Shown: positions 4,320-47,000 of the stretch, piece by piece
Layout of the letters: the number at the start of each line of letters is the position of its first letter
Numbering within the stretch: position 1 is the first letter of the stretch
DNA from: Verrucomicrobiota bacterium
GTDB taxonomy: Bacteria > Verrucomicrobiota > Verrucomicrobiia > Verrucomicrobiales > Verrucomicrobiaceae
Assembly: GCA_963204975.1 (NCBI GenBank)
Contig: CAUJJC010000275.1
Location: forward strand, 5,893 to 69,892
Reading direction: 5' to 3'
DNA length: 64,000 nt
The notes under the pieces: model-generated
Seen by the model: only the letters and a program-made list of their open reading frames with translations
Told to the model about the DNA's origin: nothing
Databases searched by the model: none
Position numbers and translations under genes: made by a program

Positions 4320-5464
4320 AACCCTCTGTGCCCAACCTCGAAATCATCCGCGACGAAGCCGCCTTCCTCGCGCTCGAACCCCACTGGGAGCGCCTCCATG
4401 AGGCCTCTGCGGTGCATACACCCTTCCGCACCTGGGACTGGAGCCGCCTCTGGTGGAAGCACTACCGTGATCGCTGCCAGCTCCGCATTGGTGTGCTGCG
4501 CGATGCCACTGGCATACCACAGGCCATCGCACCCTTCGTGCTCGGTCGCGAAGAATCGTCTGCACGCCATCACCTGCGCTACCTCTCGCTTCTGGGCGGC
4601 CTGGGCGAAGTCGTGTCCGAGGGGCTCGATTTCTTCGTTCCCGCCGGTCAGGAAGCCGCTTTGATTCCAGCCTTCGCTCCGCTGCTCAAGCAGACTCGCT
4701 CCGAGTGGGATCTGGTAGATCTGCCGATGCTTCAGGAAGACTCGCCGAGCATTCCGCACCTTAGGAAGTTGATTGGCACCACCGGACGCACTGGTGAACG
4801 CTCCGTGCCCCAGGAAGACTTCATCCTCGCCCTGCCTTCGACGTGGGATGAATTGCTCGGCTCGCTCTCTGGCAACCGCCGCAGCGACTACCGCTCCAAG
4901 TGGAAAAAACTCGTCTCCCGTCATGCAGGTCGTGGCCTCATCGTCAGCAGTGAGCAGCCATTGGCTGAAGCCTTCGATGAACTCGTGCGCCTTCACCGCA
5001 TGAGATTCACCGAGGAGGAAAGCAGCTTCCTCTCGCCCACAGCCCTCGCCTTTCACCGTGATCTGTCCGCCCTCTGGCTGCCCGCAGGCAAGCTCATGAT
5101 CACCATGCTGGAAGCCGATGGCCGTCCCGCATCCGTCCGCTATGGACTGATTTTTGGAGGTCGCTACTGGGACTACCAATCCGGCTACGACTCCCAATAC
5201 GGAGCCCTCTCCCTGGGCAATCTGAACGTCGGCTGGACCGCCCAGTGCGCCATGGAACGCGGCCTCACTGAATACGATCACCTCGCCGGTGACCTGCCCT
5301 ACAAGCGCGTGTGGTCCACCCGCAGCCGCCGCCTGCTCCACCTTGAATCCTTCAACAGCCGCAGCCCCCGCTCGCTCGTCTTTCGCCTCGCACGCAAAGC
5401 CAAGCGCCTCGTCGCACGCCGCCAGGAACTGAAGGCCGCCACCCAACTCATTACCCCTGCATGA
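4316..5464 (+). CDS. CelD/BioF2/FemAB-like GNAT acyltransferase, tandem paralog
   Basis: Start set at ATG 4316 (MKPSVPNLEI...), which overlaps the upstream stop as ATGA. About 45% identity by eye to the 3123-4319 product (LEPHWERLHEASAVHTPFRTWDW..WW). Confidence 0.65.
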   Translation: MKPSVPNLEIIRDEAAFLALEPHWERLHEASAVHTPFRTWDWSRLWWKHYRDRCQLRIGVLRDATGIPQAIAPFVLGREESSARHHLRYLSLLGGLGEVVSEGLDFFVPAGQEAALIPAFAPLLKQTRSEWDLVDLPMLQEDSPSIPHLRKLIGTTGRTGERSVPQEDFILALPSTWDELLGSLSGNRRSDYRSKWKKLVSRHAGRGLIVSSEQPLAEAFDELVRLHRMRFTEEESSFLSPTALAFHRDLSALWLPAGKLMITMLEADGRPASVRYGLIFGGRYWDYQSGYDSQYGALSLGNLNVGWTAQCAMERGLTEYDHLAGDLPYKRVWSTRSRRLLHLESFNSRSPRSLVFRLARKAKRLVARRQELKAATQLITPA

Positions 5465-6699
5465 AAATCGTCGTCCTCACCGCTGATGCGAACACGCTCG
5501 TCTATCATCGTGGCGATCTGATCCGCGACCTTGCACACGCTGGTTGCGAAGTGGTCACCAGCGCCGCCGAGGACTACCCGCATGTGCGCCAATTCGTCGA
5601 GAGCTTCGGGGCACGCCATCGTGCCATCCGCATGGTGCGCAGTCGCGTGAACTTGCTCAGCGACATCGACACCTTCATCGACATGTGGCGGCTCTTCCGT
5701 AGCGAGCGCCCGGACGCGCTCTTCGCCTACACGATCAAGTCCGTCGTCTATGGCTGCGTCGTCGCCGCCCTCGCCGGAGTGCCGCGCATTTACGCCCTGC
5801 TGCCCGGCCTCGGCTTCACCTTCGTCAAGCCGGAGACCTTCAAGCAAAAGGTCGTCAGCGCCATCTCCGTGTGGCTGCATCGCTTCGCGCTCAAGCGCGC
5901 CGACGTGATCTTCATGCAGAACGAAGACGATCATCGACTGCTGACGGAACTGAAGATCCTCCCACCCAAAGTGCCCGCCTTCGTCACCGCAGGCTCGGGG
6001 GTAAACGTCGATGAATTTCCCTTCGTTCCGCTCGAAAACGATCCCGCCATTGCCGAAGGCAAAGTGCGCTTCACCCTCGTCAGCCGCCTGCTCATCAGCA
6101 AGGGTGTGGTCGTCTTCGCCGAGGCAGCGCGCCGCATCCGGCAAAAGTATCCCCAGGCCGAGTTCCATCTCATTGGCCCCTTCGATCCCAACCCCAACCG
6201 CGTCTCCGAAGAGCAGGTGCAAGGCTGGGTCGCGGAAGGCATCCTCACCCATCACGGCATGATCCGCGATGTGGCCGCCGCTCTCCGTGACAAGCATGTC
6301 TTCTGCCTGCCCACCTGGTATCGCGAGGGCGTGCCGCACGCCACGCTGGAAGCCCTCTCAATGGGTAAACCCGTCATCACCACCGACAGCGTTGGCGCAC
6401 GGGAGTGTGTTCGGCTCACCTCCGAAGGCGAAGCCCAGCGAGCAGCAAATGCACCACTGCGCGAGGGCAGCAATGGCTTCCTGGTGGAGCCTCGCAACGT
6501 CGATGCCGTCGTCCGCGCCATGGAGTTCTACTTGCAGCATCCAGACCAGATTGCTCCGCACGGACGCGCCAGCCGCGAACTGGCCGAGGAGGTCTTCGAT
6601 GTGAAGATCGTCAATGCGCTCATCCTTCGCGAGATGGGACTCACTCAAAAGTCCTCTCACGCTCAACCATCTACCAGCCGCGTCGTCGTCCCCGCATGA
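5461..6699 (+). CDS. Glycosyltransferase family 4 (Glyco_trans_4_2-like N-terminus)
   Basis: 412-aa ORF. MKIVVLTADANTLVYHRGDLI N-terminus; REGVPHATLEALSMGKPVITTD GT-B C-terminal motif. Confidence 0.85.
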   Translation: MKIVVLTADANTLVYHRGDLIRDLAHAGCEVVTSAAEDYPHVRQFVESFGARHRAIRMVRSRVNLLSDIDTFIDMWRLFRSERPDALFAYTIKSVVYGCVVAALAGVPRIYALLPGLGFTFVKPETFKQKVVSAISVWLHRFALKRADVIFMQNEDDHRLLTELKILPPKVPAFVTAGSGVNVDEFPFVPLENDPAIAEGKVRFTLVSRLLISKGVVVFAEAARRIRQKYPQAEFHLIGPFDPNPNRVSEEQVQGWVAEGILTHHGMIRDVAAALRDKHVFCLPTWYREGVPHATLEALSMGKPVITTDSVGARECVRLTSEGEAQRAANAPLREGSNGFLVEPRNVDAVVRAMEFYLQHPDQIAPHGRASRELAEEVFDVKIVNALILREMGLTQKSSHAQPSTSRVVVPA

Positions 6700-9107
6700 C
6701 CACCGTCCAGCCTCCACCCGCCATGCATTGGGAAAATTCCATCGTCCCCGCCGCTCCCCCATCGGGAGCCCTCGTGCCTATCGAAGCTCAGCGATCCACG
6801 ATGCCCTTGCAGCCCTACGTCCCGCCGCAGCAGCACTACTATATGCCGCCGCCGATGATGCACATGCCTCATCCGGTGCCTCCACCTCCTCCTGCACAGC
6901 CCGAGACCATCGTCAGCGTCGCCGACATCATTGGCTACCTCACTACCTACTGGAAGCGCGGCATCGCCATCGCCATCCCCCTCGCGGCCCTCACCTTCTA
7001 CTTCCTTGGCTTCGGCAAGAAAGTCTATGAAGCCGAGGCCATGCTCCAGGTTTCCATCCAGGAAAACGCCCTGCTCAAAATGGACAAAAATCAGGGCGGC
7101 GGCCTTTCGGAACTCAGCGCCGTGCAGATCATCAACAATCACCGCACCGGCCTCAAGACGCGCCGTTACATCGACTATCTCTACCAGCGCTTCCCCGCCG
7201 AGCAGCGCAGCGCCTACCTCGAAGGCATGGGTGCGCTTGGCTTGCGCGGGCGCATTTTCATCGCGCTTGGATTAAAATCTCCACCGCGCGCTCTGCCACC
7301 TGAGGACATCTTCGCCGACAAGCTCGAAGACCACGTCCGCATTGAGCCCGTCAAGGAATCCCACGTCCTCCGCATCATCGTCACCGATGGCGATCCCCAC
7401 ATGGCCGCAGACCTCGCCAATCGCTACGCGCAGGATTACATCGAATACGTGGCTAATGACAGCGTGCAGGACGCCAGGGCCGCCTTTGAGCAGCTCACGC
7501 TCAAAACTGCGGATGCGAAGGTCAACCTCGACAAAGCGGAGGCCGCTCTTGCGGAGTTCAATCAAAAGGCCGACCTCCTCAAAGGCGGCGACACGAATGA
7601 TCTCTCCACCATGCGCGCCGAGAATCTCGAACGCGCACGCGCCGAGGTGGAAGTCTCCCTGCTCCGCGCCCAGGAGCGTCTGCGCCAGCTTCAAGCTGCC
7701 AAGGCCAGCGGGCAGGACCTCGCAGGCATTCGATCATCGTCAGCGACGGGTGCAGCCGACCAGGGCAACGAGACCCAGCGCAAGCTGATCGAAGCCAAGT
7801 CCAAGCGTGACAGCTTGTTGGAGTTCTGCGGTCCCCGTCACCCCAAGCTGATGCAGGCCACCCGCGAGATTGATCGTCTCGAAACCGACATCATGCAGTC
7901 CGCCGAAGGCGATGAGCAGCGCCTGCGCAGCGAACTTGATCGCCTCACCGAAGCCATGTCAGGAGCCCGTGGCGAGGCCTTCGACAAGAGCGCCAACCGC
8001 ATCCGCCAGAAGCAGCTGCGTGACGAAGTGGAAGGCCTCCGCGCCTTGCACACGGAACTCAGCCAGCATCAGGATCGTGCCCGCCTACTGAGCGAACTGC
8101 GCAGCAATGGCAACCTGAGCGTGAAGGATGTGGCCATCGCACCCGAAGCACCTATCTCACCCAAAAAATCACTCGCACTCGTCGCCGCCATGATGGTCTT
8201 CGGGCTCGCCAGCCTGGGAGTTCCCGTGAGCACCGGCTTGGCCAAAGATCACCTCCTTCCCCACCTCACCAAGGCCGCCGCCACCGCGAGGAACAAGGCC
8301 GAGACAGCTCCGTCCCCAGCCGCACCTCCAGCTCCACCGGCCCAGCCTTCGCCGCCTCCGCAGAACTACGCTCCGCCACCTCAGCCCATGTATGCGACAC
8401 CGCCACCACCGATGCTCTCGGAGCATGGCAGTCACAATGCCCAGGTGCTGGCCTCCATCCCTGAACTCATGGCCGGCGAGGGACCCATCCAGTTAAGCGA
8501 ACTGCTTCATCCCAGCCCGATCAGCGGCGGCAATGCGATTTCACAAATCACCAGCGTGCTGGAGCAGCAGCGTCTTCAGCGTCGCTGCACGGGCGTCATC
8601 CTGATCACCAGCGCTTACACGGGTGAAGGCAAGAGCCTGCTGGCCTCCGCCTTGTCCGCAGCCCTCTGCACGCTCGGCCGCAGTGTCTTCCTCATGGAGT
8701 GCAATCCCGCCGCTCCGAGCATCCAAAACTGGTTCCCCCAAGCCGGTGCCTACAGCTCCTGGTCGCACGACCTCGAGACGCTGCGCTACGGTCACTCCAA
8801 TCTGTTCCTGCTGCCCGCGCACGATCTGCCCTCGTATGAGATGACCGATCTCCTCGACGGCTACCGCGCCTGGATTGGCCGTGCGCAGTCCATGCAGCTC
8901 GACTGGATCATCCTCGACTCGGCCTCGCTCCTGCGCGGCTTCGCCGATGTGGCTCAATTGACCCCGATGGCCACGGACATCTTGTTTGTTCACGACGCCA
9001 CGATCAGCAACGCGGAACAAGTCAAAGCCGCGCTCAACCTCCTGCGTCCCCTCGCCCAACAAGGCCAGATGCGCGGCATGGTGCTGAACCGCGTGGAGTC
9101 AAATTAG
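6696..9107 (+). CDS. Polysaccharide chain-length determinant (Wzz/GumC-like) fused to a P-loop BY-kinase-like ATPase domain
   Basis: Start set at ATG 6696 (ATGA overlap with the upstream gene). Two TM segments flank a long coiled-coil region. C-terminal Walker A SAYTGEGKS and WIILDSAS. Two Pro-rich tracts. Confidence 0.75.
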   Translation: MTTVQPPPAMHWENSIVPAAPPSGALVPIEAQRSTMPLQPYVPPQQHYYMPPPMMHMPHPVPPPPPAQPETIVSVADIIGYLTTYWKRGIAIAIPLAALTFYFLGFGKKVYEAEAMLQVSIQENALLKMDKNQGGGLSELSAVQIINNHRTGLKTRRYIDYLYQRFPAEQRSAYLEGMGALGLRGRIFIALGLKSPPRALPPEDIFADKLEDHVRIEPVKESHVLRIIVTDGDPHMAADLANRYAQDYIEYVANDSVQDARAAFEQLTLKTADAKVNLDKAEAALAEFNQKADLLKGGDTNDLSTMRAENLERARAEVEVSLLRAQERLRQLQAAKASGQDLAGIRSSSATGAADQGNETQRKLIEAKSKRDSLLEFCGPRHPKLMQATREIDRLETDIMQSAEGDEQRLRSELDRLTEAMSGARGEAFDKSANRIRQKQLRDEVEGLRALHTELSQHQDRARLLSELRSNGNLSVKDVAIAPEAPISPKKSLALVAAMMVFGLASLGVPVSTGLAKDHLLPHLTKAAATARNKAETAPSPAAPPAPPAQPSPPPQNYAPPPQPMYATPPPPMLSEHGSHNAQVLASIPELMAGEGPIQLSELLHPSPISGGNAISQITSVLEQQRLQRRCTGVILITSAYTGEGKSLLASALSAALCTLGRSVFLMECNPAAPSIQNWFPQAGAYSSWSHDLETLRYGHSNLFLLPAHDLPSYEMTDLLDGYRAWIGRAQSMQLDWIILDSASLLRGFADVAQLTPMATDILFVHDATISNAEQVKAALNLLRPLAQQGQMRGMVLNRVESN

Positions 9108-43746: not shown

Positions 43747-44337
43747 ATGCCCGCCCCCAAAAAGACCGCCAAGAATGCCGCCGACGCCATCAATGAAAAC
43801 CTGGGCCGCCGGGTGAAGAAGCTGCGTGGTGATCGCGGCTGGTCGTTGGAAGAGCTGTCCAAGGTGAGCGGCGTGAGCAAGTCGATGCTCAGCGAGATCG
43901 AGCGCGAAAAGGCCAACCCTACGCTCAGCGTGACCTATCGCATCGCCAACGCCTTCGGCTTGAATTTGCAGGAGCTGATCGAGACCTCGGAGTCTGCCTC
44001 CGCCATTCAGGTCATCCGCAGCACTGAACGCTCGCAGGTTTATCGCTCGGACAAGCAATGCGAGATCCGCACGCTCTCGCCGCTGAACCTGGAGAAGGAA
44101 ATCGAGTTCTACCAAGTCACGCTCAAACCCAAAGGTGAACTCCGCAGCCAGGCGCACTACGAGGGCACGCGCGAGTTCCTCACCGTCGAGCACGGGGCCA
44201 TCCGCATCGAGTCCGGCAAAGACACCGCCGACCTCGCCAACCACGACTCCGCCACCTACCGAGCCGACATCCCGCACGCCATTGTGAACACGGGCAACCA
44301 GGAGGCTGTGGTGTTTCTGGTGGTGATTTATCGGTGA
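43747..44337 (+). CDS. XRE-family HTH transcriptional regulator with a C-terminal cupin domain
   Basis: Start set at MPAPKKTAKN. HTH LRGDRGWSLEELSKVSGVSKSMLSEIEREKANPT. Cupin C-terminus ...YRADIPHAIVNTG. Confidence 0.85.
   Translation: MPAPKKTAKNAADAINENLGRRVKKLRGDRGWSLEELSKVSGVSKSMLSEIEREKANPTLSVTYRIANAFGLNLQELIETSESASAIQVIRSTERSQVYRSDKQCEIRTLSPLNLEKEIEFYQVTLKPKGELRSQAHYEGTREFLTVEHGAIRIESGKDTADLANHDSATYRADIPHAIVNTGNQEAVVFLVVIYR
44208..44337 (+). repeat. Direct repeat copy 1: the 3' end of the XRE-cupin gene currently in use
   Basis: 130 bp. Matches 45137-45257 except for 6 substitutions and a 9-bp in-frame indel (GACCTCGCC). Confidence 0.9.
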
Positions 44338-44630
44338 ATGTAGAACTCAATCACAGGCTTGCGGCGTTCGATTCAGGCAGTAATCTGGCCAATATGATCG
44401 GGGCTTATGAAGAAACTGTCGCCTTTCTTGCGCGGGGAATGACTTCTGCGGAGTTGCTCGCGTTCAAGCCGTCCGAGGATGCATCAGCCCGCTTCGAGTG
44501 GCTGGTCCAAAAGGAGAAGGCGGAGGGCCTTCTCCCCGATGAGCAGGATGAACTTGATCGCACCATGGAGGTCGAGCGGGTGTTAAGTCTGGCCAAGGCA
44601 CGAGCGCGGGCATCATTAGCACATCGATAG
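44334..44630 (+). CDS. Small acidic hypothetical protein, partner of the HNH endonuclease
   Basis: 98-aa ORF with a GTG start overlapping the upstream stop (GTGA). Helical, with LLAFKPSEDASARFEWLVQKEKAEGLLPDEQDELD. Lower GC than its surroundings. Confidence 0.55.
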   Translation: MNVELNHRLAAFDSGSNLANMIGAYEETVAFLARGMTSAELLAFKPSEDASARFEWLVQKEKAEGLLPDEQDELDRTMEVERVLSLAKARARASLAHR

Positions 44631-44633
44631 TCC

Positions 44634-45068
44634 ATGAGTCGGTCGCACATTCCGGACTTACTTCGGGAATTAGTTCGACGACGTGCCGGGTGTGTCTGTG
44701 AGTATTGCCTGCTTCACGAAGACGACATCGTCCATCGTTTTCATGTCGATCATGTAATCAGTGAAAAGCACGGCGGCCCCACCGAGGATCACAATCTGGC
44801 CCTCTGCTGTCCCTTTTGTAACCGAGCCAAGGGCAGCGACGTCGGCAGCTTGGAAGGTGGCGAGTTCGTGCGCTTGTTCAATACACGCATCGACCGCTGG
44901 TCCGATCACTTCTCCCTGAAAGGCGATCTGATTACGCCGCTCACCACTGTGGGTGCGGTGACAGTGCGGGTGCTGTGCATCAATGCCGCCCATCGCCTCA
45001 CGCTGCGACAATCCTTGAAGGAAGCGAGCTTGTTTCCGAGTGAACAGGCGCTGGCTACCATGAAGTAG
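44634..45068 (+). CDS. HNH endonuclease (small, stand-alone)
   Basis: 144 aa. CEYC...HVDHVISEKHGGPTEDHNLALCCPFCNRAKG (Cys4 zinc + H-N-H core). Confidence 0.85.
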   Translation: MSRSHIPDLLRELVRRRAGCVCEYCLLHEDDIVHRFHVDHVISEKHGGPTEDHNLALCCPFCNRAKGSDVGSLEGGEFVRLFNTRIDRWSDHFSLKGDLITPLTTVGAVTVRVLCINAAHRLTLRQSLKEASLFPSEQALATMK

Positions 45069-45136
45069 CGAATTCTTGCTCGTAACCAGCTAAGTTGGAC
45101 GGCGAGTTTGGCCGCATTTTCTCCTGAAAATGTGCC

Positions 45137-45257
45137 CGAGTCCGGCAAAGATACCGCCAACCACGACTCCGCAACCTACCGAGCCGATATCCCGCACGCC
45201 ATTGTGAACACGGGCAACCAGGAGGCTGTGGTTTTCTTGGTGGTGATTTATCGGTGA
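45137..45257 (+). repeat. Direct repeat copy 2: displaced 3' end of the XRE-cupin gene, now without a start
   Basis: Encodes ESGKDTANHDSATYRADIPHAIVNTGNQEAVVFLVVIYR* with a TAG in frame upstream. Followed by the terminator hairpin. Confidence 0.9.
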
Positions 45258-45265
45258 AAATGAAG

Positions 45266-45296
45266 AAGGCGGTGAAGCATTGCTCCACCGCCTTTC
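45266..45296. terminator. Bidirectional terminator hairpin between the XRE-cupin remnant and rpiB-glyA
   Basis: AAGGCGGTG-N11-CACCGCCTT (9-bp perfect stem). T-rich on the minus-strand side (CTTCATTTTC). Confidence 0.6.
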
Positions 45297-45320
45297 GATG
45301 TGACTGCTGGACGGGGTGAC

Positions 45321-47000
45321 TTACGGCACCGGGAAGCGCTTGTTCACTTCGTGCACTTCGGCGCGGATGGCGGCGAGGACTTCGGCGTTGTCTTTGTTGT
45401 CGAGGGCGCGCGCGATCCAGCCAGCGATGGTCTGCATCTCGGCTTCCTTCATGCCACGCGTGGTGACGGCAGGGGTGCCGAGGCGGATGCCGCCGCCGAG
45501 GGTGTTCTTCTCGGTGTCGTAGGGGATGCCGTTCTTGTTGCAGGTGATCGCTGCCTTGTCGAGCGTCTCGCTGGCGATCTTGCCGTTGAGACCCTTTGGA
45601 CGCAGGTCCACGAGCATGAGGTGATTGTCCGTGCCGCCGCTGACGATGCGGAAGCCATGGCTGGTCATCGCAGCAGCGAGCGCCTGGGCGTTCTTCACGA
45701 CCTGCTTCTGGTATTCGATGAACCCAGGCTGCAGCGCTTCGTGGAAGCACACCGCCTTGGCTGCGATGACGTGCATGAGTGGGCCGCCCTGCACGCCGGG
45801 GAAGACCTGGCTGTTGATCTTCTTGATGAGTTCCTCGCTGTTCGTGAGGATCATACCGCCGCGAGGTCCGCGCAGGGACTTGTGCGTGGTGGTAGTGACG
45901 AAGTCCGCGTATTCCATCGGCGAGGGATGCACGCCTGCGGCCACGAGACCGGCGATGTGCGCCATATCGACGAAGAGGTAAGCGCCCACGCTCTTGGCGA
46001 TCTCGCTCATCTTCTTGAAGTCGATGATGCGCGGATAGGCGGAGGCACCGGCGGTGATCATCTTCGGCTGCTCGCGCTTGGCGACTTCGGCGAGTTCATC
46101 GTAGTCGATGAGTTCGTCGGACTGGCGGACGCCGTATTGGCAGAAGTTGTAGAAGCGGCCCGAGAAGTTGGCCAGATTGCCATGAGTCAAGTGACCGCCG
46201 TGGGCAAGGTTCATGCCGAGCACCTTGTCGCCGGGCTGGAGCACGCTGAAATAGACAGCGGCGTTGGCTTGCGAGCCGGAGTGCGGCTGCACGTTGGCGA
46301 ACTTCGCACCGAAGAGCTTGCAGGCGCGGTCGATGGCGAGTTGCTCGGCCTTATCGACTTCCTCGCAGCCGCCATACCAGCGCTTGGCGGGATAGCCTTC
46401 CGCATACTTGTTGGTCAGGCAGGAGCCCTGAGCGGCCATGACGGCGCGCGAAGTAAAGTTCTCGCTCGCGATGAGTTCGATGTGGTCCTGCTGACGCAGC
46501 GCTTCGCCACGCACGATGGCGGCGATTTCGGGGTCGGTGGCTTCGAGGATGTCGTTGGGGGTCTTGTTCATGTTCATCTTGTCAACTCTGCGTCCATGGC
46601 GTCCGCCGCTGAAGCTCGCGCTCAGCCAGGCATCGGCGATGGCATTTCCTTGTTCGGGGGAAGTGGCTTTGGCACCCATCACCAGCACGTTGCTGTTGTT
46701 GTGCTCGCGCGTGATCTTGGCGGTCTCAACATCGGCCACAAGGCTGGCTTGGATGCCTGGGTGGCGGTTCGCCGCGATGCTCATGCCGATGCCCGTGGTG
46801 CAGAAGAGCATGCCTGCATCTGCGCTGCCATCGAGCACGCGCGAGGTCACGAGATCAGCGAAGTCCGGGTAATCCACAGACGCATGACCATGCGTGCCCA
46901 GGTCATCCACGGCATAACCTTTCTCACGGAGGTAGGCGACAACGCTGTCCTTCAGATCAACGGCACCGTGATCGGCACCCATGGCTATGCGCTGACTCAT
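45321..47000 (-). CDS. rpiB-glyA: Fused ribose-5-phosphate isomerase B / serine hydroxymethyltransferase ORF
   Basis: Single 559-aa ORF. N-terminal RpiB ([33 protein letters not shown]) runs without a stop into GlyA ([22 protein letters not shown]). Confidence 0.85.

Follow-up and report, generated by a model that had tools for sequence, protein, structure and literature searches.

How does a two-gene cassette come to stand directly behind an intact host gene, with a second copy of that gene's end on its far side, when no recombinase gene is found near it? This question is raised by a locus in a 64,000-nucleotide stretch of DNA from a Verrucomicrobiota bacterium (NCBI GenBank assembly GCA_963204975.1, contig CAUJJC010000275.1, positions 5,893 to 69,892), hereafter the window, where a gene for a small acidic protein and a gene for an HNH nuclease lie at the 3' end of a gene for an XRE-cupin transcriptional regulator. 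By its regulator, the genes around it and the convergent RpiB-SHMT gene, the window belongs to the Verrucomicrobiaceae. Small cassettes for nucleases, toxin-antitoxin pairs or defence move between genomes without recombinase genes, and how they do so is a long-standing question; catalogues of insertion with long target duplication in restriction-modification systems go back, to our knowledge, to 2000, and we know of no mechanism shown for it. The cassette described here is an insertion whose flanking copies of the gene end differ, one small indel apart, only at synonymous positions, and we tentatively favour a route by which it would have been captured, through the regulator gene end, from a close relative.

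An insertion behind the regulator gene

The last 130 nt of the regulator gene (copy A) recur as a 121-nt orphan gene end (copy B) on the far side of the cassette and just before a terminator hairpin (Table 1), as an initial annotation of the window had reported. The copies align with E = 7e-46; 115 of 121 aligned bases are identical, and there is one 9-bp gap. The six substitutions are exactly the ones that had been listed (GAC/GAT, GCC/GCA, GAC/GAT, GTG/GTT, TTT/TTC and CTG/TTG), all of them synonymous, and the gap is the in-frame indel described there, a loss of D-L-A. Differences are spread along the whole repeat, the longest identical stretch being about 43 nt, and no third copy of the gene end occurs within the window. 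The unique DNA between the copies amounts to 799 nt with two genes; its GC content had been called visibly lower than that of its surroundings, and it is lower, though slightly (0.56 vs 0.60-0.61 for the regulator gene and the whole window).

The absence of an integrase, also noted at the outset, holds more widely, as no transposase, integrase, tRNA or Rfam RNA was found in or beside the insert. Scans of the regulator, the small protein, the HNH protein and a glycine-transporter-like neighbour revealed no recombinase domain, and the Pfam annotation of the other neighbours in same-species contigs contains none. An assembly artefact is excluded by the presence of the same structure, at 98.5-100% identity, in at least 15 contigs from independent ENA, JGI, Logan and NCBI assemblies.

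That the cassette was inserted is seen from a comparison of orthologous regulator loci in 80 genomes, none of which has the cassette at this position. Empty sites of the kind that the initial annotation had proposed to look for, with one single-copy gene end followed by the terminator, are present in the loci that we designate L001 (regulator protein 88% identical), L195 and L196 (94%). Their order is regulator stop, hairpin of the same type and convergent SHMT gene, and both copy A and copy B map to the one gene end; from copy B onwards the window is colinear with the L195 empty site, through gene end, hairpin and SHMT gene. The right-hand spacer of the insert shares with the native downstream region, by eye, a 7-mer alone, which was treated as chance. 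A genome with the duplication and without the cassette, which would have spoken for a simple tandem duplication, was not found among the loci compared. All same-species contigs contain the cassette and both copies, and no empty site or excision product was present among them.

The interval between the regulator and RpiB-SHMT genes (window 44338-45320) has at least four states among close relatives: empty; with the HNH cassette; with the HNH cassette and two further genes; and with genes for a Rieske protein, a ferritin-like protein, fumarase C and a 113-aa open reading frame (ORF). The last is the state of L190-L194, the closest relatives (96-97%), and no convincing long repeat surrounds these four genes in L190 and L194. 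In L081, a second insertion (4865-7549, between the equivalents of window 45257 and 45323) brings genes for proteins of 183 and 616 aa, neither with a Pfam match, and a 45-51-nt piece of the SHMT 3' end is duplicated around the 616-aa gene (5570-5620 and 7544-7594, 90% identical). With its four or more states, the interval is an insertion hotspot, in which a gene end has been duplicated on two separate occasions. Single-nucleotide polymorphisms (SNPs) between same-species contigs fall in tight blocks of third codon positions (44010-44028, 45552-45597 and 45924-45951), a pattern typical of frequent recombination imports from diverged relatives. A distant copy of the gene pair (38% and 44% identity) stands about 2.5 kb upstream of the orthologous regulator in another member of the Verrucomicrobiaceae (H5_VER2, L007 2916-3541), with no convincing flanking repeat.

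Flanking duplications and the divergence of their copies

Relatives of the cassette are patchily distributed in Verrucomicrobiota, Planctomycetota and Chloroflexota from metagenomes, and the two genes travel together: at 94 of 96 loci the HNH gene is immediately preceded by a homologue of the small gene, and both exceptions are cut by contig ends. When 68 cassette loci were grouped by the similarity of their flanks, 46 independent sites resulted, whose contexts are mutually unrelated (tyrosyl-tRNA synthetase and Uma2 genes, PIN toxin genes, a lipase gene). We searched 600 nt on each side of these cassettes for repeats scoring at least 30 bits. Direct repeats flank 19 of the 68 and inverted repeats one, and segments of the same size shifted within the same loci gave no direct repeat in 40 cases. 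By independent sites the figure is 11 of 46, the window being a twelfth; about three quarters of the sites are without a detectable flanking repeat. The repeats are 20-366 nt long and 80-100% identical, and lie in gene ends, in intergenic DNA and in 5' regions. Since their sequences differ from site to site, with no core common to them, they are local target DNA and not part of the element. Conserved element termini were not found either, the leaders and ends of distant cassettes failing to align.

Besides the window, two sites have a duplicated gene end. In the clade of L139, L156 and L187 the last 202 nt of an amidohydrolase gene, stop codon included, are duplicated, and in L189 the duplicated end belongs to a class-V aminotransferase gene of the NifS/IscS-like kind, of which the copies (257-595 and 1860-2099) are 3' fragments of 112 and 75 codons. 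Two closely related cassettes at different sites have repeats of 90-104 nt (L122, 758-847 and 1585-1673; L133, 27-130 and 863-966), the 5' edge of which runs into the final ~9 nt of the HNH gene (CCTAAC); this overlap may be a junction microhomology of 6-9 nt. A third copy of the ~90-nt L122-type repeat lies 2.4 kb upstream in L126 (689-768). In L106 the repeat is intergenic and consists of 25 perfect nucleotides.

The initial annotation had taken both versions of the regulator gene end to have evolved as functional coding sequence. We compared the copies by Nei-Gojobori counts against a null in which one copy has been neutral since the duplication (effective omega 0.55). The window copies differ by 6 synonymous and 0 non-synonymous changes (pN/pS 0; p = 0.003), those of L139 by 14 and 10 (pN/pS 0.20; p = 0.012) and those of L189 by 27 and 21 (pN/pS 0.25; p = 0.006). 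The L189 orphan is in frame over 75 codons, the first 38 of which have, by an eye count, about 14 synonymous differences and one non-synonymous difference. This predominance of synonymous differences at three gene-end sites suggests that in each case two functional alleles were brought together, and it supports the earlier claim to the extent that both versions evolved largely as coding sequence; the variant orphan of L081, described below, has non-synonymous changes and speaks against it.

The differences in the window were polarised with four outgroups. In copy A one state is derived, TTT; in copy B the derived synonymous states number four (GAT, GCA, GTT and TTG), and the ancestral TTC is kept. 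Derived ATT and GCT are common to both copies and absent from all outgroups, so that any donor must have been a close relative. Copy A matches the relatives exactly across GAC ACC GCC GAC CTC GCC, and its polymorphism among strains is confined to synonymous sites.

Routes by which the cassette may have arrived

We tentatively favour a homology-anchored capture of the cassette through the regulator gene end, with a close relative as the source. The pair would be a horizontally moving, self-interested two-gene nuclease module that enters a recombination hotspot with neither integrase nor transposase. DNA of the relative, in which the cassette already stood behind the orthologous regulator gene, would have recombined with the resident locus through the last ~130 bp of that gene, either by a Campbell-type single crossover of a circular molecule holding gene end and cassette or, equally possibly, by one homologous crossover and one illegitimate join. 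The product would be an intact gene ending in copy A, the cassette, and the displaced copy B on the native terminator; the orphan would then decay, as by a 9-bp slippage deletion, and keep exchanging sequence with other alleles, as in the L081 variant. With the copies as donor and recipient alleles, their purely synonymous differences are explained, and a single event would be enough to produce the architecture, to leave the host gene intact and to give the synonymous bias. The arrangement expected of a donor, a cassette without an orphan, exists behind the same amidohydrolase gene in L131, L178 and L184 (lineages about 80% identical), which fits this capture. The two-allele signature at three sites points to homology-anchored capture rather than to a simple staggered cut. 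The claim that the cassette arrived with a replacement 3' end was already made in the initial annotation; it is borne up by the insertion, the empty sites and the synonymous bias, and is weakened in that recombination imports could mimic the pattern after insertion. If true, capture would explain how cassettes land behind essential or regulatory genes without damage, and why hotspots between convergent genes gather orphan gene ends.

Several observations weigh against this capture. The 9-bp gap is a deletion present only in the orphan, between two CGCC repeats, and every orthologue is of full length; no functional 193-aa regulator allele matching copy B was found, and none shorter than 196 aa exists among the best 120 of 2384 regulator homologues (E <= 1e-60), which are Verrucomicrobiaceae-type regulators of 196-231 aa. 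Judged from the alignments, the deletion is a sign of orphan decay and not of function, and it can no longer be counted, as it had been, as evidence that copy B was functional. In L081 the orphan allele carries a pair of non-synonymous changes (I>L and T>S). Four of the six synonymous differences (GCA, GTT, TTC and TTG) are missing from it, and it reads GAC at the polymorphic GAC/GAT site; it shares the 9-bp deletion and GAT15 with the window orphan and elsewhere resembles copy A. As imports are frequent in the population, a functional foreign allele could also enter an orphan after an in-situ duplication. A single junction is common to the three genomes of the L139 clade, which makes the insertion an old one. 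Among their orphans there is one with a frameshift; in the tree, two orphans group with the functional copy of the same genome, a sign of gene conversion, and the remaining one is basal within its clade, so that the tree fits in-situ duplication followed by gene conversion. About half of the changes specific to the L139 orphan are non-synonymous, by a polarisation made by eye. In L189 both copies are gene fragments and no full-length aminotransferase gene is present in the 5-kb locus, which implies a history of several steps, and intergenic repeats such as that of L106 say nothing about alleles. The cassette was not found behind this regulator without the duplication, either at the 80 orthologous loci or in any same-species contig. 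The occurrence of the cassette in unrelated contexts with no flanking repeats, which the initial annotation had set down as counterevidence, is partly what is seen, at the repeat-free three quarters of the sites. Finally, the 616-aa gene of L081 has no recognisable domain and the same architecture, so that the mechanism may owe nothing to the HNH protein; the insertion route may be general rather than HNH-specific.

The main rival is an in-situ insertion with long target duplication, in which a staggered break, such as two nicks ~130 nt apart that the HNH protein possibly made, took up the cassette and was filled in, and the initially identical copies diverged later by drift and import; it is possible, if rather doubtful. 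It would require no donor-type arrangement, and would suit the tree and the decay of the L139-clade orphans as well as repeats that vary in length, are specific to their sites and lie in gene ends, intergenic DNA and 5' regions alike. The 9-bp deletion and GAT15 are common to both orphan alleles, the other differences being allele-specific; the SNP blocks show that imports are frequent, and the microhomology at L122 and L133 would be one between cassette end and target. It would also belong to a class that Furuta, Abe and Kobayashi define in what we draw on of their account, with a double-strand break suspected (Furuta et al., 2010; PMC2853133). It needs, however, a second event at each of three loci, an import ending inside a 120-370-nt orphan, to reach pN/pS values of 0-0.25, and it does not lead one to expect an orphan with the ancestral TTC beside a copy A with the derived TTT. 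Inspection by eye of the repeat boundaries at 13 listed sites, with no formal motif search run, gave neither a target motif nor one of the nicking type. A further reading, in which the pair would be an autonomous minimal mobile element of 0.8 kb and of a new kind, the HNH protein breaking DNA and host recombination completing the insertion with long, variable duplications and at times a replacement gene end, seems to us unlikely. If true, it would be a transposase- and integrase-free life cycle, as Kobayashi's group proposed for restriction-modification units.

The remaining explanations are less probable still. Classical homing, which the initial annotation had offered as a plausible alternative, would have the HNH protein cut the cassette-free regulator-SHMT interval, with repair copying in the cassette and its flanking markers. 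The protein comes from a nuclease family that homing endonucleases use, with an intact active site, the synonymous differences of copy A could be cleavage-resistant markers, and at the amidohydrolase gene the cassette has stayed in place across lineages ~80% identical. The family is nevertheless found at 46 or more unrelated sites that have no target sequence in common, and this disfavours site-specific homing; this locus is cassette-free in all 80 orthologues, a double crossover would leave no duplication, the obligate small partner would be unexplained, and none of the 2.9 million viral contigs searched, phage included, holds a relative of the cassette. Homing to a defined site is therefore very unlikely. 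We consider it highly improbable that an integrase acted in trans on a tiny mobilisable element with an attachment site that includes the gene 3' end, in the manner of islands that target tRNA genes or gene ends. The sequence of intact end, insert and displaced copy does have the architecture of attL and attR, and more distant relatives (~44% HNH identity) on cyanobacterial plasmids adjoin site-specific integrase genes in all three cases examined. An integrase would need a defined core, however, and the lack of one disfavours this route: repeat length and sequence differ at every site, the window copies differ along their whole length, and no integrase is present in the insert, the flanks or the metagenome loci examined. 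Least credible of all is that cassette and duplication are unrelated, the cassette having hit a prior tandem duplication or landed between dispersed repeats. Chance insertion between repeats is a class that the consulted part of Furuta et al. (2010; PMC2853133) lists, and the third copy of the L122-type repeat in L126 would suit it; the duplication without the cassette is nowhere seen, the window repeat is single-copy elsewhere, and flanking repeats accompany 19 of 68 real cassettes vs none of 40 control segments.

The gene pair, its surroundings and known systems

The upstream gene had been annotated as encoding a 98-aa acidic protein. Such a reading starts at GTG 44334 and overlaps the regulator stop; nearly all homologues have ~80 aa and start at the equivalent of ATG 44394, and the public call is 78 aa, so the protein probably has 78 aa. 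Its acidity was correctly noted (isoelectric point 5.0). The structural model is all-helical, with four helices (predicted local distance difference test score, pLDDT, 91), and no PDB fold match reached E < 2.6. Pfam, NCBIfam and PADLOC gave zero matches to it and PHROGs a single non-significant one (E = 0.07). Residues 13-38 (window 44430-44507) have weak matches to a TALE-repeat profile that add up over the stretch, no single stretch being significant; the likeness, G-M-T-x-x-E-L-x-A-F-x-P-S against L-T-P-E-Q-V-V-A-I-A-S, may be coincidence.

The 144-aa HNH endonuclease gene was identified correctly. Both CxxC pairs and the residues D39-H40...N54...N63 are invariant across the family and intact here, and the structural model (pLDDT 90) has McrA, Cap5, Cas9-HNH and PtuB as its nearest folds, none significantly. 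The protein is near neutral in charge and belongs to a family of stand-alone proteins of ~135-150 aa, with 223 clusters (50% identity) at E <= 1e-30 and 2948 at E <= 1e-10; PADLOC returned generic HNH (PtuB-like) matches alone. Residue 84 is Thr in the window (ACA, 44883-44885), at a family position that is nearly invariant Pro; position 44883 varies in L081, L085 and L086, L081 having CCA (Pro), and the Thr may reflect relaxed selection or attenuation. In most same-species contigs (L081-L089) an antisense ORF of 107 aa (44670-45011, minus strand) is annotated over the HNH gene and is called in its place, so that the nuclease is missing from many annotations.

Stop and start codons of the pair overlap in most homologues. 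No methyltransferase or recognisable restriction system was found in the cassette, and the pair has no match to a known toxin, antitoxin or defence family in Pfam, NCBIfam or PADLOC. From its anatomy the pair may be a selfish toxin-antitoxin-like or restriction-like module, in which the HNH DNase would be held in check by its small acidic partner; the earlier suggestion of a toxin-antitoxin or defence-type module thus agrees with the gene arrangement and finds no counterpart among known families. As no terminator separates the cassette from the regulator stop, transcripts of the regulator gene are likely to read through into it. On the other side, the convergent gene encodes a 559-aa fusion of ribose-5-phosphate isomerase B (LacAB_rpiB) to serine hydroxymethyltransferase.

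Table 1. Features of the regulator locus, in window coordinates
Feature	Position	Strand	Remarks
XRE-cupin transcriptional regulator gene, 196 aa	43747..44337	+	HTH_3 and Cupin_2 domains; 3' end duplicated
Copy A, functional, last 130 nt of the regulator gene including the TGA stop	44208..44337	+	full ancestral length
Left end of the insert and leader	44338..44393	+	homology to copy B and to empty sites ends just after TGA-A
Gene for small acidic four-helix protein, 78 aa	44394..44630	+	HNH partner; putative antitoxin or immunity/regulatory subunit
HNH nuclease gene, 144 aa, intact	44634..45068	+	PF01844, E = 3e-11
Right-hand spacer of the insert, 68 nt	45069..45136	+	GC 0.50; without homology to empty sites
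Copy B, orphan gene end, 121 nt, with 9-bp deletion	45137..45257	+	contiguous with the native terminator
Native bidirectional terminator hairpin, 13 pairs	45266..45294		between convergent genes; homologous hairpin in L001 and L195 empty sites
RpiB-SHMT fusion gene, convergent	45321..47000	-	right border of the insertion hotspot

Homology-facilitated illegitimate recombination and Campbell integration resemble the events proposed here, as one homologous anchor, the gene end, suffices and no dedicated recombinase is involved; in Campbell integration, moreover, a circle that enters by one crossover leaves the homologous segment in two copies, with the donor allele beside that of the recipient. 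Homology-facilitated illegitimate recombination in experiments usually deletes recipient DNA rather than duplicating it. The present locus differs from the demonstrated cases in that recipient DNA is duplicated and that a donor arrangement for the regulator locus was not found. Its left junction lies inside the regulator gene, as that process requires, and for the right junction (45136/45137) no donor was found for a comparison of microhomology. In Vibrio cholerae, incoming effector-immunity modules of the type VI secretion system displace resident ones, and homology-facilitated illegitimate recombination is mentioned five times in the text of that work (PMC5361080); the gene system is a different one, and whole genes are displaced.

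Free-standing homing endonuclease genes, such as seg and mob of phage T4, are likewise small nuclease genes between conserved genes, where linked polymorphisms could protect; unlike them, the cassette has no conserved target and no phage context, and has a flanking duplication and an obligate partner gene. It shares with type II toxin-antitoxin systems a patchy distribution, PIN neighbours and a bicistronic layout, in which the gene for a small acidic protein precedes that for a larger enzyme and, in most homologues, the stop of the one overlaps the start of the other; it differs in that no known toxin or antitoxin family is matched and the HNH protein is near neutral, its toxin role being putative. 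The replacement-end architecture recalls integrative elements at gene 3' ends, unlike which no tyrosine or serine recombinase was found.

Insertion with long target duplication of restriction-modification gene units was reportedly described by Nobusato and colleagues in 2000. The HNH cassette family offers a much smaller and more frequent test case, with two short genes, hundreds of clusters and duplications at about a quarter of the independent sites. As far as the consulted text of Furuta et al. (2010; PMC2853133) goes, the repeats of the restriction-modification insertions are 46-423 bp long and 93-100% identical, often imperfect and in some cases placed over gene 3' ends; the mechanism is not given there, double-strand breakage being suspected, and a cycle of 'invade, amplify via repeats, release' is proposed. 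Of the five marks used to recognise the class, the window has repeats of more than 30 bp, an insert of less than 20 kb, no mobility genes and a single copy of the repeated sequence in the insert-free genome, and lacks the fifth, as restriction and modification genes are absent from the cassette. In both settings a nuclease unit with no integrase or transposase lies between long direct repeats of variable length (121/130 bp here; Furuta et al., 2010, PMC2853133, in the part used), which are imperfect, overlap a gene 3' end and correspond to a single-copy local sequence in the insert-free genome. The cassette differs from restriction-modification units in its size of 0.8 kb and its content, a helical protein of ~80 aa and an HNH protein of ~145 aa with no methyltransferase. 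It differs too in the two-functional-allele signature (pN/pS 0-0.25), which is not reported for restriction-modification insertions in those portions of Furuta et al. (2010; PMC2853133). Homology-anchored capture would match the invade, amplify and release cycle proposed for restriction-modification units (PMC2853133, as far as consulted), and the cassette is a very small example, outside restriction-modification systems, of insertion with long target duplication, to which a recurring two-allele signature is added.

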